28,069 nucleotides of DNA from a virus (lineage: Duplodnaviria; Heunggongvirae; Uroviricota; Caudoviricetes), in the IMG/VR virus record IMGVR_UViG_2874920711_000005, one strand, 5' to 3'. This document shows positions 10,806-17,627 of this stretch, one piece after another. Both the position numbers and the translations under genes were made by a program. The notes below the pieces were generated by a model. That model was given only the letters and a program-made list of their open reading frames with translations. It was not told the origin of the DNA and ran no database searches. Within the stretch, counting starts at the first letter, position 1, and each line of letters starts with the position of its first letter.

Positions 10806-10880
<75 letters not shown>

Positions 10881-10883
10881 ATA

Positions 10884-10959
<76 letters not shown>

Positions 10960-10961
10960 GC

Positions 10962-11038
10962 TGGCCCACCACCGAGGACTCGAACCTCGCACCGTCAACT
11001 TAGAAGGTTGATGCTCTATCCGGATGAGCTAGTGGTGG
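10962..11038 (-). tRNA. tRNA-Arg (anticodon UCU, reads rare AGA)
   Basis: Acceptor CCACCAC/GTGGTGG, anticodon stem TCAAC/GTTGA with loop CTTCTAA, T-stem CGAGG/CCTCG, CCA end. Confidence 0.75.
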
Positions 11039-11039
11039 T

Positions 11040-11116
11040 TGGTGGCCCTTGCTGGACTTGAACCAGCGACCTGGCGATTATGAGTCGCTCGCTCTGACCA
11101 ACTGAGCTAAAGGGCC
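11040..11116 (-). tRNA. tRNA with CAU anticodon, most similar to tRNA-Ile2 (ileX-like, lysidine, reads AUA); elongator Met not excluded
   Basis: GGCCCTTTAGCTCAG...GCGACTCATAATCGC...GGTTCAAGTCCAGCAAGGGCCACCA; resembles E. coli ileX from memory. Confidence 0.7.
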
Positions 11117-11466: not shown

Positions 11467-11859
11467 TCATCCCCCGCCCTCATACCGTTGCCGAAGGACG
11501 CTAATCAATCCTGGATGCTCTGCCAGCACCTCACTTATGACCCGATCAATACATAACGCCTCTGCATCAGTACAATGCGCCAGCCAGCTCTTTTGCTTAC
11601 CGTTAATCATATCCCGCAAAAAAGCCTCAAGTTCAGACTTGTTCAGACCTGCTTTTTTCATCCTCCGGAGCGCCTCGTTAATTGCCGTTTTTGTCAGCTT
11701 TTTAGAGGTCAACATCAGGTTAAACATATTCCCCGTCTTACCGCCACCAATATACGACCAGCGCCCCCACATACGTAGTTTTCCCTGAATCCAGACACTT
11801 TCCAGCGTGGTGAGACGAAGGTGTTCTCCGCTTTTTCCTGTATTCGTTGGGTAAATCAT
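11467..11859 (-). CDS. Putative late-gene antitermination protein Q (130 aa; start at the ATG with GAAAGGAGGG SD; track ORF extends to 11979)
   Basis: Position immediately upstream of tR'-like terminator, tRNAs and lysis cassette; sequence resembles small Q-family antiterminators from memory; ATGA overlap with the upstream gene. Confidence 0.5.
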   Translation of the reverse strand: MIYPTNTGKSGEHLRLTTLESVWIQGKLRMWGRWSYIGGGKTGNMFNLMLTSKKLTKTAINEALRRMKKAGLNKSELEAFLRDMINGKQKSWLAHCTDAEALCIDRVISEVLAEHPGLISVLRQRYEGGG

Positions 11860-12146
11860 AAATATCCCTCCTTTCTCCAGATTTCTTGTGTGCGAAAAAC
11901 ACCTTCTGCATGCATCAGGCGTAATTCTTCTTTGGTGTAATCGCTGGTTTTTACCCGCCCGTCGATTAAATCGTGGCACGAGCTACAGGCAATCGCTGCC
12001 TGCATATCGTGTGGCTTTATCGCTGTTCCGCACGTTCCCGCCAGTCGGTAATGCGCCAGCACAGACGTTTCCGGATCGTGATTGCAGTAGCCAGGAATTC
12101 TGACGGTGCACATCTGCCCCCGCGCCGCTTTAAGTAAATCCACCAT
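11856..12146 (-). CDS. YbcO-like nin-region protein (DUF1364-type, Cys-rich, putative nuclease)
   Basis: MVDLLKAARGQMCTVRIPGYCNHDPETSVLAHYRLAGTCGTAIKPHDMQAAIACSSCHDLIDGR... resembles DLP12 YbcO. Confidence 0.6.
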   Translation of the reverse strand: MVDLLKAARGQMCTVRIPGYCNHDPETSVLAHYRLAGTCGTAIKPHDMQAAIACSSCHDLIDGRVKTSDYTKEELRLMHAEGVFRTQEIWRKEGYL

Positions 12147-13319: not shown

Positions 13320-13475
13320 TTACTTCCTGGATTCGTAGTCTACGAAGACAGCGACCTCCGTCTGGCCGGTTCGGATTCGTACCTCACAGAGGTCTTTCCT
13401 CGTTACCAGTGCCGTCACTATGACGGTTAAACAGATGACGATCAGGGCGATTAACATCGCCTTTTGCTGCTTCAT
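13320..13475 (-). CDS. hok: Hok-family type I toxin (51 aa); the upstream regulatory region probably carries mok/sok elements (not resolved)
   Basis: MKQQKAMLIALIVICLTVIVTALVTRKDLCEVRIRTGQTEVAVF... is near-identical to HokD/Hok; GC-rich hairpins plus terminator-like structure downstream (13197..13311). Confidence 0.85.
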   Translation of the reverse strand: MKQQKAMLIALIVICLTVIVTALVTRKDLCEVRIRTGQTEVAVFVDYESRK

Positions 13476-13702
13476 AGCCTGCTTCTCCTTGCCTTTCGGC
13501 ATGTAAGAGGCTAACCTACATGTGCAAAGCATGAAATTGGCCTCAGATTAATGTTAAGCGTCTTGCCGGACGCGTAATGTTAACTGGGGCTTTTCTCTAT
13601 CTGCCTTTTGGTGTTCATGCCTGAAGCAGATAGCCTCAAGCACCCGCAGTCATTCTACTTACCTCGCCAATATGAAATCAATCAGAAAGGTGCCCCATAA
13701 AA

Positions 13703-14389
13703 TCACTCCTTCTCTTCTTTACCGTAGTGGAGTTGACCAATTTTGATAAGAGGGCGTCCCTGAGATTTGCGGTGTAGATTGGTATCGCGCAGAGAATACA
13801 CACAGCCACAATATTCCTGCTGATAGAATTTTTCGCGCTTGCTGATTTCAATCATACGGGACGAGCCGCCCTGCTTGCGCCAGTTATAATCCCAGTACAC
13901 CATGCCCGGATAATGCGCGACGGCTCGCCGCCCACAGTCGTTAACCTGCTGCATATTTTTCCAGCGTGAAATGCCCAGTGAACTGCTGATCACACTGAAA
14001 CCATTTTCAGCGGCGTACAGCGCTGTCCGCTCAAAACGCATGTCAAAACACATGGTGCAACGGATCCCTCGTTCGGGCTCCCATTCCATTCCTTTGGCTC
14101 GTTCAAACCAGTTGTCTGTGTCGTAATCAGCATCAATAAACGGCACGCCGTGTTGTTCAGCAAAGCGAATATTCTCATCCTTACGAATTAAATACTCTTT
14201 CTGAGGATGAATGTTCGGGTTGTAGAAAAAGATGGTGTAGTCGATTCCCGAGGCCTGAAGCGCCTCCATCACCTCACCGGAACATGGAGCACAGCAAGAG
14301 TGCAGTAGTAGTTTGTTTGCCCCGTTTGGGAGCTCCAATTTGGGCCGTTTGAAATCAGCAACTGTCATAAATATGTTTATTGGGGTCAT
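13703..14389 (-). CDS. queH: QueH-like epoxyqueuosine reductase (DUF208 family)
   Basis: Conserved Cys motifs [29 protein letters not shown] and overall resemblance to Thermotoga-type QueH. Confidence 0.75.
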
Positions 14390-14536
14390 AAAAATATCAA
14401 AGAGTGTAGCATTAGAACGGGGCTATCGGAAACAGATGTGTGACTGCTCCCCGCCCTTTCGGGCGGTCTCCTGATGATTTGAGGGTGCAGAAATCCCTCC
14501 GGTTAAGGATTAAATTTTTAACAGTGCTAAATTTAA

Positions 14537-14893
14537 TTATTCAGTTCTGGATTTTGTCGCCCTGCGTATCCGCGCTTTCGCGTTACGCTCAATCTGTATC
14601 AGCTTTTCTATATTTCTCCGCCTTTCCTGTTCCTCCTGGCGCAATAGCCTTACATCATCTGCCAGTCTGGTTTCTCTTTTTGCCACAGAGAGCATCCAGT
14701 CAAACGGCTCCACAACCGCACCGCAGATTTTACAGCGGACCTGACGCTCTTTTTCGTCAACCCGTACAGAGGCGTGATGGCAATATGGTCTTTCCGATGG
14801 CTCATAAAGAAAATTAACCTGATTACGAGGGCCATCCTCTTTTATCGGAAATAAAACGATATTGCTTAACTCATCTTCTGGGTTTATTTCCAT
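14537..14893 (-). CDS. Hypothetical protein with zinc-ribbon-like CHH...CKIC motif and Arg/Glu-rich C-terminal helix (118 aa from ATG 14893; track ORF starts 14950)
   Basis: Strong SD GGAGAGGAG before ATG 14893; no recognisable family. Confidence 0.4.
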   Translation of the reverse strand: MEINPEDELSNIVLFPIKEDGPRNQVNFLYEPSERPYCHHASVRVDEKERQVRCKICGAVVEPFDWMLSVAKRETRLADDVRLLRQEEQERRRNIEKLIQIERNAKARIRRATKSRTE

Positions 14894-14950
14894 GCTCCTC
14901 TCCTTTGATGCGAATGCCAGCGGTAATTGAAGCCTGATAGCTAATTTCAT

Positions 14951-15373
14951 TCACAGTATCGCCTCCTGAAAATTACCCTGATAGAAAGCCAGTACACGCT
15001 GCATAGCTTCGCTCTTCCGGCACTCGCGACAGATTATATTCAGGCGCCTGTCGTAGCGACGTATTTCTCCGTCAGGTAATGACCAGATAAGGTCCGGATC
15101 AACCACAGATGGTTTCCTCACCTTTACTCTCGAGAGTTTTTTGCGGGCGCTTTGCCAGTCCTTGCGAGCCTGTTCAGACGGGAATAAGCCGTAGCCAGAA
15201 TTATATACATCACCACTTGCGACCAGTTCTATGCATAAGCGACCGACAGACGCACGACTGATACCTGTTTCATCGGACAACTGCCGAATCGTGACCCGAC
15301 CGTCCTGATGCACGAGTTCCACAATTCGCGTCTTCAGTTCTTCCCGCTGTTCGGGAGTAAAAGGTTTCGCCAT
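14951..15373 (-). CDS. Hypothetical phage protein with N-terminal winged-HTH-like region (140 aa)
   Basis: AGGAGG SD; N-terminal ...RVTIRQLSDETGISRASVGRLCIELVASGDV... looks like an HTH. Confidence 0.45.
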   Translation of the reverse strand: MAKPFTPEQREELKTRIVELVHQDGRVTIRQLSDETGISRASVGRLCIELVASGDVYNSGYGLFPSEQARKDWQSARKKLSRVKVRKPSVVDPDLIWSLPDGEIRRYDRRLNIICRECRKSEAMQRVLAFYQGNFQEAIL

Positions 15374-15387
15374 AAATCCTCCTGAAA

Positions 15388-16134
15388 CTACTTAACAACC
15401 CTCGAATGGCTAACATTCGGACGCCAGCTCTCCCAGTTAAAATTCACCCAGCGCCCGCCGTTCATGACCATGCGATCCATCACCCGCTCGCCGAGCAATG
15501 TTTTCATCACCTCATAGTTCAGGTTTGTCAGCATCCCCACGCTGCGCATCGACGCTGTCCGGCGATCAACAATCTGGTGCAGCACCACCTGCTCGTTTTT
15601 CGTCTCGCGCTGAATGCCAATTTCATCAAGAACCAGCAGATCCACTTCGCACAGCTCCCGCAAAAATTTTTCGCCTGACTGCCCGTCGTCATAGCTGGCG
15701 TGCAGGGCGCTCATAACATCAGCCACGGTAACCACAATCACTGTCTGACCGTCTTTCAGCAGGCGATTCCCGATAGCTGCCGCTAAGTGATTCTTCCCGG
15801 TACCAGGTTTTCCGCTGAACGCAAAATTTGTACACCCGGTCATCAGTTCATCGGCGATGGATTTCGCCTGGCTTAACGCGTATCGCTGGCCGTCGTTCTG
15901 CACCTGGTAATTCGCAAACGAGCATTTACGGTGCAACGGCTGGATGCCTGAGCGATTCAGAATTTTTTCCACCCGCAACTGGCGATTCAGGCGGTTGATC
16001 TCCTCGCTACGTTTCTGGCCTTCAGCAAGTTGCCACTCGCGCCACTCCGCTACCGTTCTGAATGGGGCGGTTACATGTGGCGGGGTCAGTCGGCGGATGC
16101 GTTCCAGAACGCCGCCTGTCGCAATATTTTTCAT
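15388..16134 (-). CDS. DnaC-like helicase loader (IstB-type AAA+ ATPase; Rac YdaV-like)
   Basis: Walker A FSGKPGTGKNHLAAAIG, Walker B DLLVLDEIG; follows the replication initiator with a 4-bp overlap. Confidence 0.85.
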   Translation of the reverse strand: MKNIATGGVLERIRRLTPPHVTAPFRTVAEWREWQLAEGQKRSEEINRLNRQLRVEKILNRSGIQPLHRKCSFANYQVQNDGQRYALSQAKSIADELMTGCTNFAFSGKPGTGKNHLAAAIGNRLLKDGQTVIVVTVADVMSALHASYDDGQSGEKFLRELCEVDLLVLDEIGIQRETKNEQVVLHQIVDRRTASMRSVGMLTNLNYEVMKTLLGERVMDRMVMNGGRWVNFNWESWRPNVSHSRVVK

Positions 16135-16916
16135 GGTCCGTTACCCCTGAAGCCTGGCGGGATCGCACTGTCCGGCAACGAGACGGTGTTAACCTGTCGG
16201 AGCAACGTCTCAGGCCGAACACCTTTCGGCGCGAACAGGCCCTGGTATTCATTGGCGATGCTGTGTCGAATCACCTGCTCAGGTGTAAAACCCTGCTGAC
16301 GGAATTTTTCCAGTTCCCGTATCGCCCCGTTAGCGCCCTGCTCCGTTCGAATCGGTTTTCGCAATGCCTGTCTGAACCGGACCCACTCATGCCAGAGTGT
16401 TTCCGGCAACCAATCGGGCAGCTCAATAGCCTCCGGCTCGAATTTTTTAGACGCTCGTTTTTGGCGAGGGGGATTTAGGGGGAGATCAGTATTTAGATCT
16501 TCCTCTGGTAACGCTTTTTGATCCGTTTGTGTAACGCTGGCAGCGTTACCTTTTCGTTTCAGTTCGCGTATTTTTGTTACTCGCTCGTTTGTAACCGCCC
16601 GTTTTTTAGAGCTTTTTCCGTTATGACGTTCAAAGTTAGGTAGAGAAAGCCCACCGTCATTTTCGACCAGCCATCCAACCTGAATTAACGCATCAGCAAA
16701 ACCAGACATAAAAGTGATGCGATCTATTGCACTTTTTGTAACGCCGCGAGCGTTACAATCTGCATTACCGTCTATCATTTGTTGATCCGCCCATGCCCAG
16801 AAGCGAATAACCTTCCCTAATGCGGCATCTGGATCAATATTCAGAATCTCAGCAAGCCTGAATATTTCCGGCTTATCCGGCGTAATAACCTCGAGCTTTA
16901 TCCAGTTTGAAGCCAT
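16131..16916 (-). CDS. Replication initiation/replisome organiser protein (Rac YdaU-like)
   Basis: 261-aa ORF upstream of the DnaC-like gene; contains palindromic iteron-like repeats; AAGGTGA SD. Confidence 0.6.
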   Translation of the reverse strand: MASNWIKLEVITPDKPEIFRLAEILNIDPDAALGKVIRFWAWADQQMIDGNADCNARGVTKSAIDRITFMSGFADALIQVGWLVENDGGLSLPNFERHNGKSSKKRAVTNERVTKIRELKRKGNAASVTQTDQKALPEEDLNTDLPLNPPRQKRASKKFEPEAIELPDWLPETLWHEWVRFRQALRKPIRTEQGANGAIRELEKFRQQGFTPEQVIRHSIANEYQGLFAPKGVRPETLLRQVNTVSLPDSAIPPGFRGNGP

Positions 16917-16993: not shown

Positions 16994-17416
16994 TCAATGC
17001 ACTACGACAGAATCGCCGGGCGACCCACCACCGCTGAAATGTGCTTTCCGGTAAACGGCCTGGACAGCATCATCATGCGCATCAATTGCCGTACTCAACG
17101 CTTCCTGCGCCGCCAGTAATGCACGGCGTTCCAGGGTATCGAAGATACAGAGTCGGTGACGCAGCTCACGCGGAAGAATTGCCAGAACCGCAGGGATCAG
17201 TTTCTGAATTTTTTCCCTTTGCGCTTTCGTTTCACCTTTCAACCAACGGTGATAGATATTCTGCTGATTGTTCCAGTCCTTGCCTGGTACCAGAGACAAT
17301 TCGCCGCCCCCCTGCCGCAGATATTCTTCAGTAATTGCGTTAGCGACCCACGCCTGCCCTTTTTCGGCTGCCAGGGCTAACAGCACTGATTCGATGTGCT
17401 CATGCCTGATTTTCAT
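16994..17416 (-). CDS. YdaT-like protein (Rac immunity region homolog)
   Basis: MKIRHEHIESVLLALAAEKGQAWVANAITEEYLRQGGGELSLVPGKDWNNQQNIYHRWLKG... resembles Rac YdaT from memory. Confidence 0.6.
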   Translation of the reverse strand: MKIRHEHIESVLLALAAEKGQAWVANAITEEYLRQGGGELSLVPGKDWNNQQNIYHRWLKGETKAQREKIQKLIPAVLAILPRELRHRLCIFDTLERRALLAAQEALSTAIDAHDDAVQAVYRKAHFSGGGSPGDSVVVH

Positions 17417-17627
17417 GAATCACCTTCCCAGGTCGTTTTGCCTTACGATATTCGTCATAAACTTTGGGGTCGTACTGAAGTTCCCCGCCAGATGCCTCTT
17501 GCAGGCGCATCGCGCGACCTTCAGGAACCAGTTCCCCCCATGCAGCAATGCTTGCCAGCCTAACTCCTGCGGCATTGGCAAGCTTTGTTTTGCTGCCAAA
17601 AAACGCTATAGCATCAATTTTCAACAT
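17400..17627 (-). CDS. Cro-like HTH regulator (Rac YdaS-like)
   Basis: 75-aa ORF divergent from the repressor; strong SD TAAGGAG; HTH ...AIAFFGSKTKLANAAGVRLASIAAW... Confidence 0.65.
   Translation of the reverse strand: MLKIDAIAFFGSKTKLANAAGVRLASIAAWGELVPEGRAMRLQEASGGELQYDPKVYDEYRKAKRPGKVIHENQA

Follow-up and report, generated by a model that had tools for sequence, protein, structure and literature searches.

A long-form Ren homologue and a member of a widespread zinc-ribbon family downstream of the replication genes of a Rac-like lambdoid prophage

Introduction

The Ren protein of bacteriophage lambda (NP_040633, 96 aa, PHROG 142) is said to shield the phage from Rex exclusion, and other phages are reportedly not excluded by Ren. 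The ren gene lies immediately after the helicase-loader gene, in the order O, P, ren, and is transcribed from pR together with O and P; its product has been described as 'likely involved in DNA replication', and in two-hybrid assays the Rex proteins interact with O and with Ren (bioRxiv 10.1101/2021.04.19.439022). In lambda, ren is dispensable (PMC10695390). For the DUF977 proteins, which are known as YdaW in the Rac prophage and as LygF in Salmonella and E. coli phages, the sole experimental mention that we found comes from an overexpression screen in which the Rac DUF977 gene, ydaW, emerged as a blocker of retron-Sen2 RcaT toxicity (bioRxiv 10.1101/2020.06.22.160242). A literature search for LygF, DUF977, and the accessions and PHROG identifiers used here found no functional study. 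The closest relatives of the second gene described below are members of PHROGs 1621, 8538 and 4865, among them ArgO145 gp17, Tyrion gp50 and QBP28234 of Klebsiella phage ST15-VIM1phi2.1, to which it matches over its full length and with which it shares a CxH...CxxC ribbon, a DPFD turn, a long helix and an ERNAKARIR end.

The window analysed here is a stretch of 28,069 nucleotides (IMG/VR record IMGVR_UViG_2874920711_000005) from a Rac-like, lambda-like lambdoid prophage of E. coli/Shigella. The original prediction singled out two small genes located directly downstream of the replication genes, here called gene 1 and gene 2 in operon order. They were described as a tightly packed pair of no nameable family, occupying a variable accessory slot, and were proposed to form, with queH and hok, an island that could encode an exclusion or defence function. 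In this study, we have compared both genes with known families, folds, genomic contexts and defence systems.

Results

The locus and its neighbours

Positions 14537..15373 are occupied by two minus-strand ORFs, both of which are real genes, and both are annotated in a 99.7% identical E. coli prophage in RefSeq. They belong to the early-right, minus-strand operon of the prophage, in which the order is cro, ydaT, an O-like gene, a DnaC-like gene, gene 1, gene 2, queH and hok. Immediately upstream of gene 1 is a DnaC/IstB-type helicase loader, ydaV (15388-16134, minus strand; NCBIfam PRK12377, E 8e-154; phrog_50). Downstream of gene 2 is the prophage queH (13703-14389, minus strand), identified by PF02677 (E 1.9e-65) and by its RefSeq annotation, and hok is nearby (PF01848, E 1e-22). 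A Q-like protein is encoded further along, at 11467-11979. This prophage has a DnaC-type loader and no rexAB-like genes beside its repressor, as judged from the ORF list and Pfam scans, whereas the loader of lambda is P.

A crude scan detected no sigma-70-like promoter on the coding strand before gene 1 or gene 2 and, because of this, neither gene would be expected to be active while the lysogen is repressed. Between gene 2 and queH, a gap of 147 nt folds with a z of -2.2 and contains a GC-rich hairpin, CCGCCC-TTTC-GGGCGG (14451..14466), with no coding-strand U-run. We considered this hairpin as a terminator and rejected it, given the missing U-run and the failure of a terminator scan to report it.

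Gene 1 is a full-length member of the Ren/DUF977 family

Gene 1 (14951..15373, minus strand) encodes 140 aa, and a Shine-Dalgarno AGGAGG (15378..15383, minus strand) can be read off the sequence 4 nt ahead of its ATG. Its RefSeq counterpart is WP_001118169.1, a 'DUF977 family protein', and it is 75-99% identical to hundreds of E. coli/Shigella prophage proteins annotated as DUF977, YdaW or LygF, from which we could discern no structural difference. The Pfam DUF977 model (PF06163; 134 positions) matches residues 1-136, that is, the full length of the protein, with E 1.1e-33 and 116.6 bits against a cut-off of 22.1. Furthermore, gene 1 and lambda Ren fall in the same PHROG, phrog_142 'Ren-like', with E 2.7e-44 and 1.6e-41, respectively. 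Lambda Ren alone, unlike gene 1, yields no match reaching the Pfam DUF977 model.

The two proteins share an N-terminal winged helix and a C-terminal motif of the form N-x-I-x2-ECRxSxxMxRxL..Y. In gene 1, the winged helix-turn-helix comprises residues 7-64 (15182..15355, minus strand); it matches Pfam HTH_24, HTH_IclR and MarR_2, and is modelled by AlphaFold2 with a pLDDT of about 90. The top Foldseek matches of the gene 1 model in the PDB are mostly winged-helix domains, chiefly from GntR, IclR, MntR and MarR regulators. The C-terminal motif, NIICRECRKSEAMQRVLAFY (residues 112-131; 14981..15040, minus strand), has low pLDDT in the monomer model and was recognized in lambda Ren by BLASTP and alignment (12 of 20 residues identical, E 3e-7). 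Overall identity between gene 1 and lambda Ren is only about 25%, and their alignment is collinear from end to end, with 14 invariant columns in the combined DUF977 and Ren alignment that include N112, I114, E117, C118, R119, S121, M124, R126, L128 and Y131. Gene 1 is 44 residues longer than lambda Ren, owing to an N-terminal extension of about 10 residues and an insert of about 30 residues with a basic helix.

As in lambda, gene 1 immediately follows the helicase-loader gene, and across the Ren family this position is kept whether the loader is of the DnaC type or the lambda-P type. By family membership and syntenic position, gene 1 can be identified as a long form of ren, the one that this phage carries. 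The original prediction had likened the slot after the replication genes to that of ren, and this proved correct in the literal sense that gene 1 is a homologue of lambda ren. The slot is also variable, as had been proposed: in E. coli APEC O1, it holds a DUF1627 gene followed by a DUF977 gene. The statement that no family could be named does not hold for gene 1 (DUF977/PF06163; Ren PHROG 142). Gene 2 falls in PHROG 1621, which is unnamed, and the sequence and fold searches led to no function for it.

A profile built from Ren and DUF977 sequences had its best PDB sequence matches among the Z-alpha and Z-beta domains of ADAR1 and PKZ (E 5e-5 to 3e-3). With the single sequence of gene 1, these domains scored E 0.09, and nothing in the PDB scored below this value. 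Residue W73 is invariant across the gene 1 family and may be the equivalent of the Trp in the wing of Z-alpha domains. Of the two recognition residues in helix 3, the tyrosine that defines Z-DNA recognition (ADAR1 Y177) appears, in a hand alignment, not to be kept in Ren or gene 1, and the asparagine appears to be absent in gene 1. The likeness of gene 1 to Z-alpha domains may serve as a lead, and does not amount to membership.

Start site of gene 2

Gene 2 (14537..14893, minus strand) encodes a 118-aa protein with a zinc ribbon and a long helix, which belongs to PHROG 1621. The 57-nt spacer that separates it from gene 1 (14894..14950, minus strand) is open in frame in this prophage, such that a longer ORF of 137 aa opens at the ATG at 14950, which abuts the stop codon of gene 1. 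The original prediction placed stop and start side by side; this applies to the long ORF, whereas the conserved gene 2 most probably begins 57 nt away, at 14893. In every homologue, the first residue corresponds to M20 of the long ORF (MxTETE..ELSNVV), and the PHROG 1621 match to the long ORF likewise begins at residue 20. The 357-nt form of gene 2 is the one annotated by RefSeq and in phage ArgO145. When 233 related loci are compared, the shared sequence before the ATG at 14893 extends for only about 30 nt and contains AAAGGAGAGGAG; beyond this, the sequence varies with the genomic context. The spacer region carries in-frame stops in Ea22 contexts, and in most DUF977 contexts the upstream ATG is replaced by GTG. 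Because the homologue starts, the PHROG match, the annotations and the upstream divergence agree, the start of gene 2 is most likely at 14893, which would give a 118-aa product and a 57-nt spacer.

It is improbable that the true gene 2 is the ORF at 14537-14950 and that the TGAATG junction couples its translation to that of gene 1, which would fix the proportion of the two products. This arrangement would make use of the open frame and of an AGGAGG located 11 nt upstream of the ATG at 14950, and a 414-nt form is annotated in one phage record. However, the M20 start of the homologues, the PHROG profile and the RefSeq annotation contradict it, as do the stops or GTG codons found in the extension in most other contexts and the restriction of conservation to the last 30 nt or so before 14893. 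A strong Shine-Dalgarno within the spacer, GGAGAGGAG (14895-14903, minus strand), also speaks against a start at 14950.

Family and anatomy of gene 2

The RefSeq counterpart of gene 2, WP_001343130.1, is a 'hypothetical protein', and the match of gene 2 to phrog_1621 covers residues 1-117, the full length, with E 1e-54. No Pfam family scored above its cut-off, the NCBIfam scan gave nothing specific, and neither Pfam, NCBIfam nor PADLOC supplied a name. Nevertheless, the family is large: at E<=1e-3 we found 1,557 cluster representatives (50% identity) and, in a second database, 144 homologues. Of the 5,426 complete E. coli genomes searched, 1,680 (~31%) carry gene 2, and its E. coli copies are annotated as hypothetical in all 30 matches listed.

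Three elements can be distinguished in the protein. The first is an acidic N-terminal motif, E-x-E-L-x-N-(V/I)-V-x-F-P (residues 6-16; 14846..14878, minus strand), defined from homologue alignments: E6, L9, N11, F15 and P16 are invariant among 24 enterobacterial homologues, and NVxxFP remains the consensus among 54 distant ones. This region is modelled with low confidence and little regular structure. The second, recognized from conservation and the model, is a zinc ribbon (residues 36-62; 14708..14788, minus strand) with putative ligands C38, H40, C54 and C57, followed by (D/E)PFD. It is a two-stranded hairpin in the model, and in the 54 distant homologues C54 and C57 are invariant and C38 and H40 are kept in 98% and 96%, respectively. 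The third, seen in the AlphaFold2 model and in the conservation, is a single long helix (residues 63-117; 14543..14707, minus strand; pLDDT up to 93) that ends in the basic, near-invariant IEKLIQIERNAKARIRR. The conserved C-terminal helix pattern L-x-R-x-E-R-N-A-K-A-R-I-R is present, with L98, E102, N104 and R108 each kept in 93% or more of the distant homologues. Net charge is -5 over residues 1-35 and +6 over residues 85-118; the monomer model as a whole has a pTM of 0.38.

The nearest known fold is the small, two-stranded, four-ligand ribbon of TFIIB and S27e (PF08271, PF01667). The likeness is weak: gene 2 scores 21.1-21.5 bits against the TFIIB-type model PF08271 (Zn_Ribbon_TF), below the cut-off of 29, and Foldseek gives E 0.2 for the TFIIB ribbon 1PFT, this being the best value against the PDB and BFVD, where the matches were the TFIIB ribbon and uncharacterised phage proteins. 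Furthermore, the first ligand pair is CxH in gene 2 but CxxC in the TFIIB and S27e ribbons, and the rest of the protein is unrelated. The resemblance is thus one of common fold only, and not of membership. A PDB search with the single gene 2 sequence returned nothing below E 0.09, a profile of 54 relatives found only generic coiled coils among PDB sequences (E>=0.026), and a Pfam scan of these 54 relatives, made in the hope that an extra domain would give a clue to function, returned only weak ribbon and coiled-coil matches.

Several specific candidates were considered and rejected. A bZIP-like basic region in ERNAKARIRR fails the PROSITE-type pattern when checked by hand, and its basic part lies C-terminal to the coil. 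The order of residues in NVVxFP is unsuitable for a mimic of a beta-clamp motif, an SSB tip or an FtsZ tail. Finally, restriction alleviation of the Lar/Ral type and a zinc anti-sigma motif were set aside because gene 2 shows no profile match to either and has the wrong ligand pattern.

Gene 2 occurs in many contexts

Our survey counted 145 unique gene 2 contexts, drawn from a sample of loci strongly biased to near-identical E. coli copies. For these near-identical copies, the upstream neighbour was Ren-like in 51 unique contexts, Ea22-like in 42 and something else in 28, which does not support the tightly packed pair of the original prediction. Of the 83 loci whose upstream sequence reached 3 kb or more, 18 had no Ren-like gene, and in six non-E. 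coli genomes none was found within 6 kb of gene 2. Among E. coli contigs, gene 2 may follow DUF977, follow Ea22-like genes or occur without any DUF977. In ArgO145, within an exo-xis/Ea22 early region, and in Enterobacter phage Tyrion it follows an Ea22-like gene; in the Klebsiella phage it lies between ninG and ylcG-Q; and a relative is found in Serratia phage Parlo, where no lysogeny context is obvious in the part that was examined. In contrast to its position after ren in this window, the family lies directly upstream of the antiterminator gene Q in other genera, for example in Klebsiella and Erwinia prophages: divergent copies are immediately upstream of a Q-like gene in 17 of 19 contexts, with no Ren-like gene close by, and these Q-like neighbours belong to six different PHROG families. 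Chimeric ORFs (Ea22::gene 2, gene 2::DUF977 C-terminus and gene 2::Q-like) were also encountered, which indicates active recombination at these joints.

Context counts across genomes therefore revealed no conserved co-occurrence or adjacency of gene 1 and gene 2. The largest single E. coli class, however, is the one seen here (51 of 121), with an identical 57-nt spacer, and for this reason some functional cooperation between the two genes may exist. Nonetheless, they are not an obligate pair, and the conserved position of gene 2 before Q is a small new point.

Comparison with known defence systems

The original prediction had called for a comparison with defence catalogues, and this lent it no support: against PADLOC-DB 2.0, neither gene gave a significant match. 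Gene 2 had no match, and gene 1 had weak matches to CRISPR-associated regulators that contain an HTH, namely Csa3, CasR and CARF (E 5.7e-4 and 17.8 bits at best), which we attribute to its generic winged helix.

Discussion

Taken together, the most likely explanation, and one in which we have reasonable confidence, is that the rightward, pR-type operon of this Rac-like lambdoid prophage carries gene 1 and gene 2 as separate delayed-early genes, and not as a two-gene system. They are ordinary mosaic phage genes, and the family of gene 1 is already known. As ordinary early genes that are shuffled independently, they do not constitute a new defence system, and their adjacency here would be one product of modular recombination among early-operon genes.

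By homology, gene 1 is expected to work on behalf of its phage in lytic growth, where it would associate with the replication complex and, by extrapolation from lambda, it may guard the development of its own phage from Rex-type abortion. It would probably act through protein-protein contact, and not by operator-specific repression. Gene 2 is a member of a widespread nin-region family, placed between the replication genes and Q. From its sequence features and position, we tentatively propose a small oligomeric adaptor: its helix may pair as a coiled coil, with the basic end binding nucleic acid and the N-terminal peptide docking onto a partner protein. As the family is almost always directly upstream of Q outside E. 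coli, gene 2 may act around the early-to-late transition.

A different role for gene 2, for which we see only an outside chance, is in counter-defence or host takeover, in which the NVVxFP peptide and the ribbon would bind to a conserved protein of the host and block it, while the helix provides an oligomerisation scaffold; the target could be an immune sensor, or a hub of replication or transcription. A small and highly conserved protein that moves among early-gene slots of temperate and other phages, in which a short and invariant linear motif lies where the model has little regular structure, and whose gene often adjoins Ren-like or Ea22-like accessory genes, could behave in this way. However, the sequence and fold searches found no similarity to known inhibitors, no nameable binding motif fits NVVxFP, and the position upstream of Q indicates a regulatory or DNA-metabolism role at least equally well.

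For gene 1, the alternative to a Ren-like role is that it encodes an ordinary transcription factor of the MarR/IclR type, which would regulate the downstream gene 2, queH and hok from a specific operator and have no link to replication or to Rex. The winged helix is confidently modelled and matches the HTH_24, IclR and MarR profiles, and YdaW has been listed as a predicted transcription factor of E. coli with no known function (PMC9308461). We nonetheless find this reading unlikely: Ren-family genes stay after the loader gene regardless of what lies downstream, conservation in the family peaks at the C-terminal motif and not at the recognition helix, and gene 1 has no ligand-binding or dimerisation domain of the kind typical of MarR and IclR proteins.

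Least tenable of all, and in our judgement very unlikely, is the original proposal that gene 1 and gene 2, perhaps joined by queH and hok, make up an island through which the lysogen is protected, superinfecting phages being excluded or aborted: the slot is indeed variable and carries morons, a hok/sok type I toxin-antitoxin is close by, gene 2 has no known function, and the PHROG label of the gene 1 family is 'Ren-like exclusion protein', but the catalogue matches are absent or generic, the two genes occur independently of each other, of queH and of hok, and relatives of gene 2 are found both in other types of phage and within early or nin operons. The absence of a promoter-like site, together with the relative in phage Parlo, makes a poor fit to a self-defence gene expressed in a lysogen, and the defence reading of gene 1 fails by the original prediction's own standard, since gene 1 is clearly homologous to an accessory protein known to be associated with replication. 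The label 'exclusion protein' is a misnomer, as Ren makes lambda resistant to Rex exclusion.

These findings are of use mainly for annotation. DUF977, YdaW and LygF proteins can be labelled long-form Ren homologues, and the PHROG label 'exclusion protein' would be better read as 'protects the phage from Rex-type exclusion'. Our understanding of phage defence is unchanged, and this region should not count as a candidate defence island. Gene 2 can be marked as belonging to a nin-region family that is very common but unstudied. One speculative prospect, to which we attach a low probability, is that this family is an unrecognised player in the early-to-late switch, for example a zinc-ribbon/coiled-coil factor working with or on Q or the Q transcript, or else a novel anti-defence protein whose spread has taken it into the ren and Ea22 slots of E. 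coli; the former role would explain its site immediately upstream of six unrelated Q families. The fixed place before Q in other genera is a starting point for determining the function of the gene 2 family.

Layout of the two genes and the prophage

As the original prediction had it, two small genes fill the interval 14537-15373 (both ORFs lie on the minus strand), but the stop-start adjacency it described did not hold. Gene 1 (14951-15373, 140 aa) carries AGGAGG 4 nt ahead of its ATG, and the longest gene 2 ORF begins at ATG 14950, abutting the gene 1 stop. Four lines of evidence instead point to ATG 14893 as the conserved gene 2 start (14537-14893, 118 aa). All gene 2 homologues begin at its equivalent, with MxTETE..ELSNVV; the PHROG profile aligns to the long ORF only from residue 20; and the 357-nt form is the one annotated in RefSeq and in phage ArgO145. 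Finally, across 233 related loci the sequence shared before ATG 14893 is only about 30 nt, including AAAGGAGAGGAG; farther 5' it depends on context, with in-frame stops where an Ea22-like gene precedes and GTG replacing the ATG at 14950 in most DUF977 contexts. With the start predicted at 14893, 57 nt would therefore separate the two genes.

The window is a lambdoid prophage of the Rac type, from E. coli or Shigella. Over the 3-kb stretch round the two genes it shares 99.7% identity with E. coli FDAARGOS_944, and RefSeq has these genes annotated there as well. The early-right operon lies on the minus strand and runs from a cro-like gene (17400-17627) through ydaT (16994-17416), an O-like initiator gene (16131-16916) and a DnaC/IstB-type helicase loader gene (15388-16134) to genes 1 and 2. 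Still on the minus strand, the accessory slot after gene 2 holds queH, for an epoxyqueuosine reductase (13703-14389; PF02677, E 2e-65), and is followed by a hok toxin ORF with a full-length sok antisense RNA (13320-13645; PF01848; Rfam RF01794, 117 bits), by genes for a DUF1367 protein and then a YbcO-like nuclease, and by a Q-like antiterminator gene (DUF1133, 11467-11979). The DUF1133 protein matches the Q-like phrog_753 (E 1.5e-55) and is therefore probably the late-gene activator of the prophage. The queH-hok arrangement is repeated in many E. coli prophages; as QueG is the usual enzyme of E. coli, the prophage queH looks like a metabolic moron.

Four minus-strand tRNA genes (10806-11116), for Gly-TCC, Thr-TGT, Arg-TCT and a CAT-anticodon tRNA called Met by ARAGORN and Ile in RefSeq, separate the Q-like gene from the lysis genes, a layout like that of Stx-type lambdoid phages. 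The immunity-left region contains a plus-strand gene (18961-20160) for a 399-aa transposase that combines HTH and DDE_3 domains (PF13358, E 4e-23), a pair that we take to be IS630-like; the FDAARGOS_944 prophage annotation has no transposase at this place, and so the window may derive from another strain, possibly of Shigella. Rfam also identified isrK and C4 antisense RNA side by side, together with RalA (20560-20747, plus strand, and 25493-25671, minus strand). The isrK/C4 pair is tied to anti-repressor control in P1/P7-type and some lambdoid elements, and RalA is the sRNA antitoxin in RalR/RalA, a type I toxin-antitoxin system of Rac. The 147 nt from gene 2 to queH contain a perfect 6-bp GC hairpin (CCGCCC TTTC GGGCGG, 14451-14466), which has no U-run on the coding strand and accompanies gene 2 in some phages (vB_EcoS-640R1) and not in ArgO145.

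Gene 1 is a Ren-family protein

The original prediction rightly located the slot after the replication genes and rightly thought of ren, and the gene found there proved to be a Ren homologue. Contrary to what had been supposed, neither of the two genes lacks a family: gene 1 belongs to DUF977/PHROG 142 and gene 2 to PHROG 1621. Gene 1 matches Pfam DUF977 along its entire length (E 1.1e-33; 116.6 bits, cut-off 22.1), PHROG 142 recovers both gene 1 (E 2.7e-44) and lambda Ren (E 1.6e-41), and BLASTP aligns NIICRECRKSEAMQRVLAFY of gene 1 with NLVFKECRQSAAMKRVLAVY of lambda Ren (12/20 identities, E 3e-7). In a multiple alignment, DUF977 and Ren proteins are collinear, sharing a winged helix at the N-terminus, invariant Gly and Trp residues, and a C-terminal block, N-x-I-x2-ECRxSxxMxRxL..Y; relative to lambda Ren, DUF977 has an added N-terminal segment and an insert of about 30 residues. 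By every membership test that could be applied, gene 1 is a Ren/DUF977 protein. Like lambda ren it comes straight after the loader gene, a place that Ren-family genes hold with DnaC-type and lambda-P-type loaders alike.

AlphaFold2 modelled the winged helix (residues 7-64) at pLDDT ~90 and the next, basic helix also with confidence; the C-terminal part was poor. Foldseek matched the model for the most part to generic winged-helix domains. A profile built from the Ren and DUF977 alignment (gene 1, 15182-15355; alignment A2) found the Z-alpha/Z-beta domains of ADAR1 and PKZ best among PDB sequences (E 5e-5 to 3e-3); the Z-DNA-specific tyrosine appears not to be conserved, and therefore this match is probably just general winged-helix similarity. 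Alternative annotations in the family are YdaW (Rac) and LygF, the latter apparently a name without a function, encountered only in two Salmonella genome announcements in the literature searched. A DUF1627 protein often sits between the loader and DUF977 genes (4252-5013 of locus L004, E. coli APEC O1; also loci L009 and L015-L019), and its weak Ren-like winged-helix match to phrog_142 (E 1.3e-4) suggests that related winged-helix proteins contend for the ren slot.

The family of gene 2 is catalogued but unstudied

Gene 2 is a member of PHROG 1621 (E 1e-54), with weaker matches to PHROGs 8538 and 4865, all three without known function. No Pfam family exceeded threshold (Zn_Ribbon_TF reached 21 bits against 29), and NCBIfam and PADLOC gave no match. 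One database held 144 homologues, spread over Escherichia, Shigella, Salmonella, Klebsiella, Kluyvera, Serratia, Erwinia, Yersinia, Pluralibacter and Morganella. When 1.84 billion cluster representatives were searched with a profile, 1,557 matched at E<=1e-3, 243 of them at E<=1e-10. The gene 2 DNA occurs in 1,680 of 5,426 complete E. coli genomes and carries the label 'hypothetical' in all of the matches listed.

The N-terminal tail of the protein is acidic and includes an invariant E-x-E-L-x-N-V-V-x-F-P (an NVxxFP consensus persists in distant members). After it come a ribbon, whose ligands C38-x-H40 and C54-x-x-C57 precede (D/E)PFD, and a long helix with the near-invariant end L-x-R-x-E-R-N-A-K-A-R-I-R; net charge is -5 over residues 1-35 and +6 over residues 85-118. 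AlphaFold2 (mean pLDDT 75) gave a hairpin ribbon and a single helix, 63-117. Searches with gene 2 yielded only generic ribbons and coiled coils, both in PDB and viral structure libraries and in the profile search of PDB sequences.

The two genes are not a unit

The co-occurrence test for a two-gene system failed. We analysed 264 gene 2 loci, collapsing to 145 unique contexts. The gene directly upstream of E. coli-type gene 2 (at least 90% identity) was Ren-like in 51 contexts, Ea22-like in 42 and of another kind in 28. The tight coupling proposed originally found no support. Among the 83 loci whose upstream sequence extended to 3 kb or more, 18 had no Ren-like gene; in six genomes of other genera, the 6 kb around gene 2 held none. 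In the Stx2a phage ArgO145, a near-identical gene 2 lies between two Ea22-like genes of the exo-xis/Ea22 early region; in Enterobacter phage Tyrion it follows an Ea22-like gene, in a Klebsiella phage it lies between ninG and ylcG-Q, and in Serratia phage Parlo it adjoins an HTH-domain protein gene among genes mostly of unknown function. In E. coli contigs it follows DUF977 (again at a distance of 57 nt), follows DUF4406 and an Ea22-like gene, or lies in a prophage lacking DUF977.

Chimeric database ORFs join an Ea22 N-terminus to gene 2, a gene 2 N-terminus to a DUF977 C-terminus, or gene 2 to a Q-like protein, and mark the gene 2 joints as recombination points. Four of these ORFs (P0041, P0043, P0060 and P0003), which combine the N-terminal half of gene 2 with the C-terminal half of DUF977 or the Ea22 N-terminal coiled coil with the whole of gene 2, look like deletion or recombination products of neighbouring modules; in P0021 the gene 2 N-terminus is fused to a DUF1133 C-terminus. 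The gene 2::DUF977 fusions imply prophages with gene 2 upstream of the DUF977 gene. As Ren-like genes are very common in the ren slot, their frequent adjacency in E. coli is to be expected without a functional link; functional cooperation of the two genes there is possible.

Divergent copies from Klebsiella, Kluyvera, Erwinia, Pantoea, Photorhabdus and Serratia had a Q-like antiterminator gene directly downstream in 17 of 19 unique contexts, at times with stop-start overlap and at times with a tiny ylcG-like ORF between, and had NinG, HNH nuclease or RusA genes upstream. The Q genes came from six PHROG families (304, 943, 79, 753, 127 and that of the annotated Q of a Klebsiella phage). Of the more distant relatives, one is flanked by a small winged-helix gene and rusA within the nin region of a lambdoid element. 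Another precedes an unannotated 599-aa ORF and a portal gene, with a few small genes in between, a setting that suggests the border of the late region. From these contexts the family is therefore a nin-region gene, located after the replication genes and ahead of Q. It normally occupies the final place before Q, from which it has shifted in E. coli to the ren and Ea22 slots; E. coli-type gene 2 adjoined Q in none of 113 cases.

Functional implications

In 1980, Toothman and Herskowitz reportedly found that ren-minus lambda is sensitive to exclusion by rex+ lysogens, the phenotype behind the gene name. More recently, ren, transcribed from pR together with O and P, has been considered 'likely involved in DNA replication', and two-hybrid assays showed Rex proteins contacting O and Ren (bioRxiv 10.1101/2021.04.19.439022). 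Plaques can form without ren (PMC10695390), and the retron-Sen2 toxin RcaT is blocked by overexpressed prophage genes including the Rac homologue ydaW (bioRxiv 10.1101/2020.06.22.160242). Taken together, these observations point to a phage-serving protein, whether for counter-exclusion or as a replication accessory, rather than to a defender of the lysogen, and on this point the PHROG label 'Ren-like exclusion protein' misleads. Beside the repressor of this prophage, no genes resembling rexAB were evident.

The proposal of an exclusion or defence function also found no support in the PADLOC defence catalogue, where neither gene showed the features of a known system. Furthermore, a simple scan of the coding strand revealed no promoter-like site belonging to gene 1 or gene 2; their expression would therefore have to await derepression, which is ill suited to protecting a lysogen. 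We suggest that gene 1 serves the phage at or close to the replication complex, where it may prevent Rex-type abortive exclusion, probably through protein-protein contacts made by its C-terminal motif. More tentatively, gene 2 might be an oligomeric coiled-coil adaptor that binds nucleic acid with its basic helix end, docks a partner through its N-terminal peptide and acts around the early-to-late transition.

The finding is an ordinary one, since both proteins are already in RefSeq and in thousands of genomes. Only two points are mildly new: DUF977 can be read as a long form of Ren, and the zinc-ribbon family has a fixed place before Q outside E. coli.
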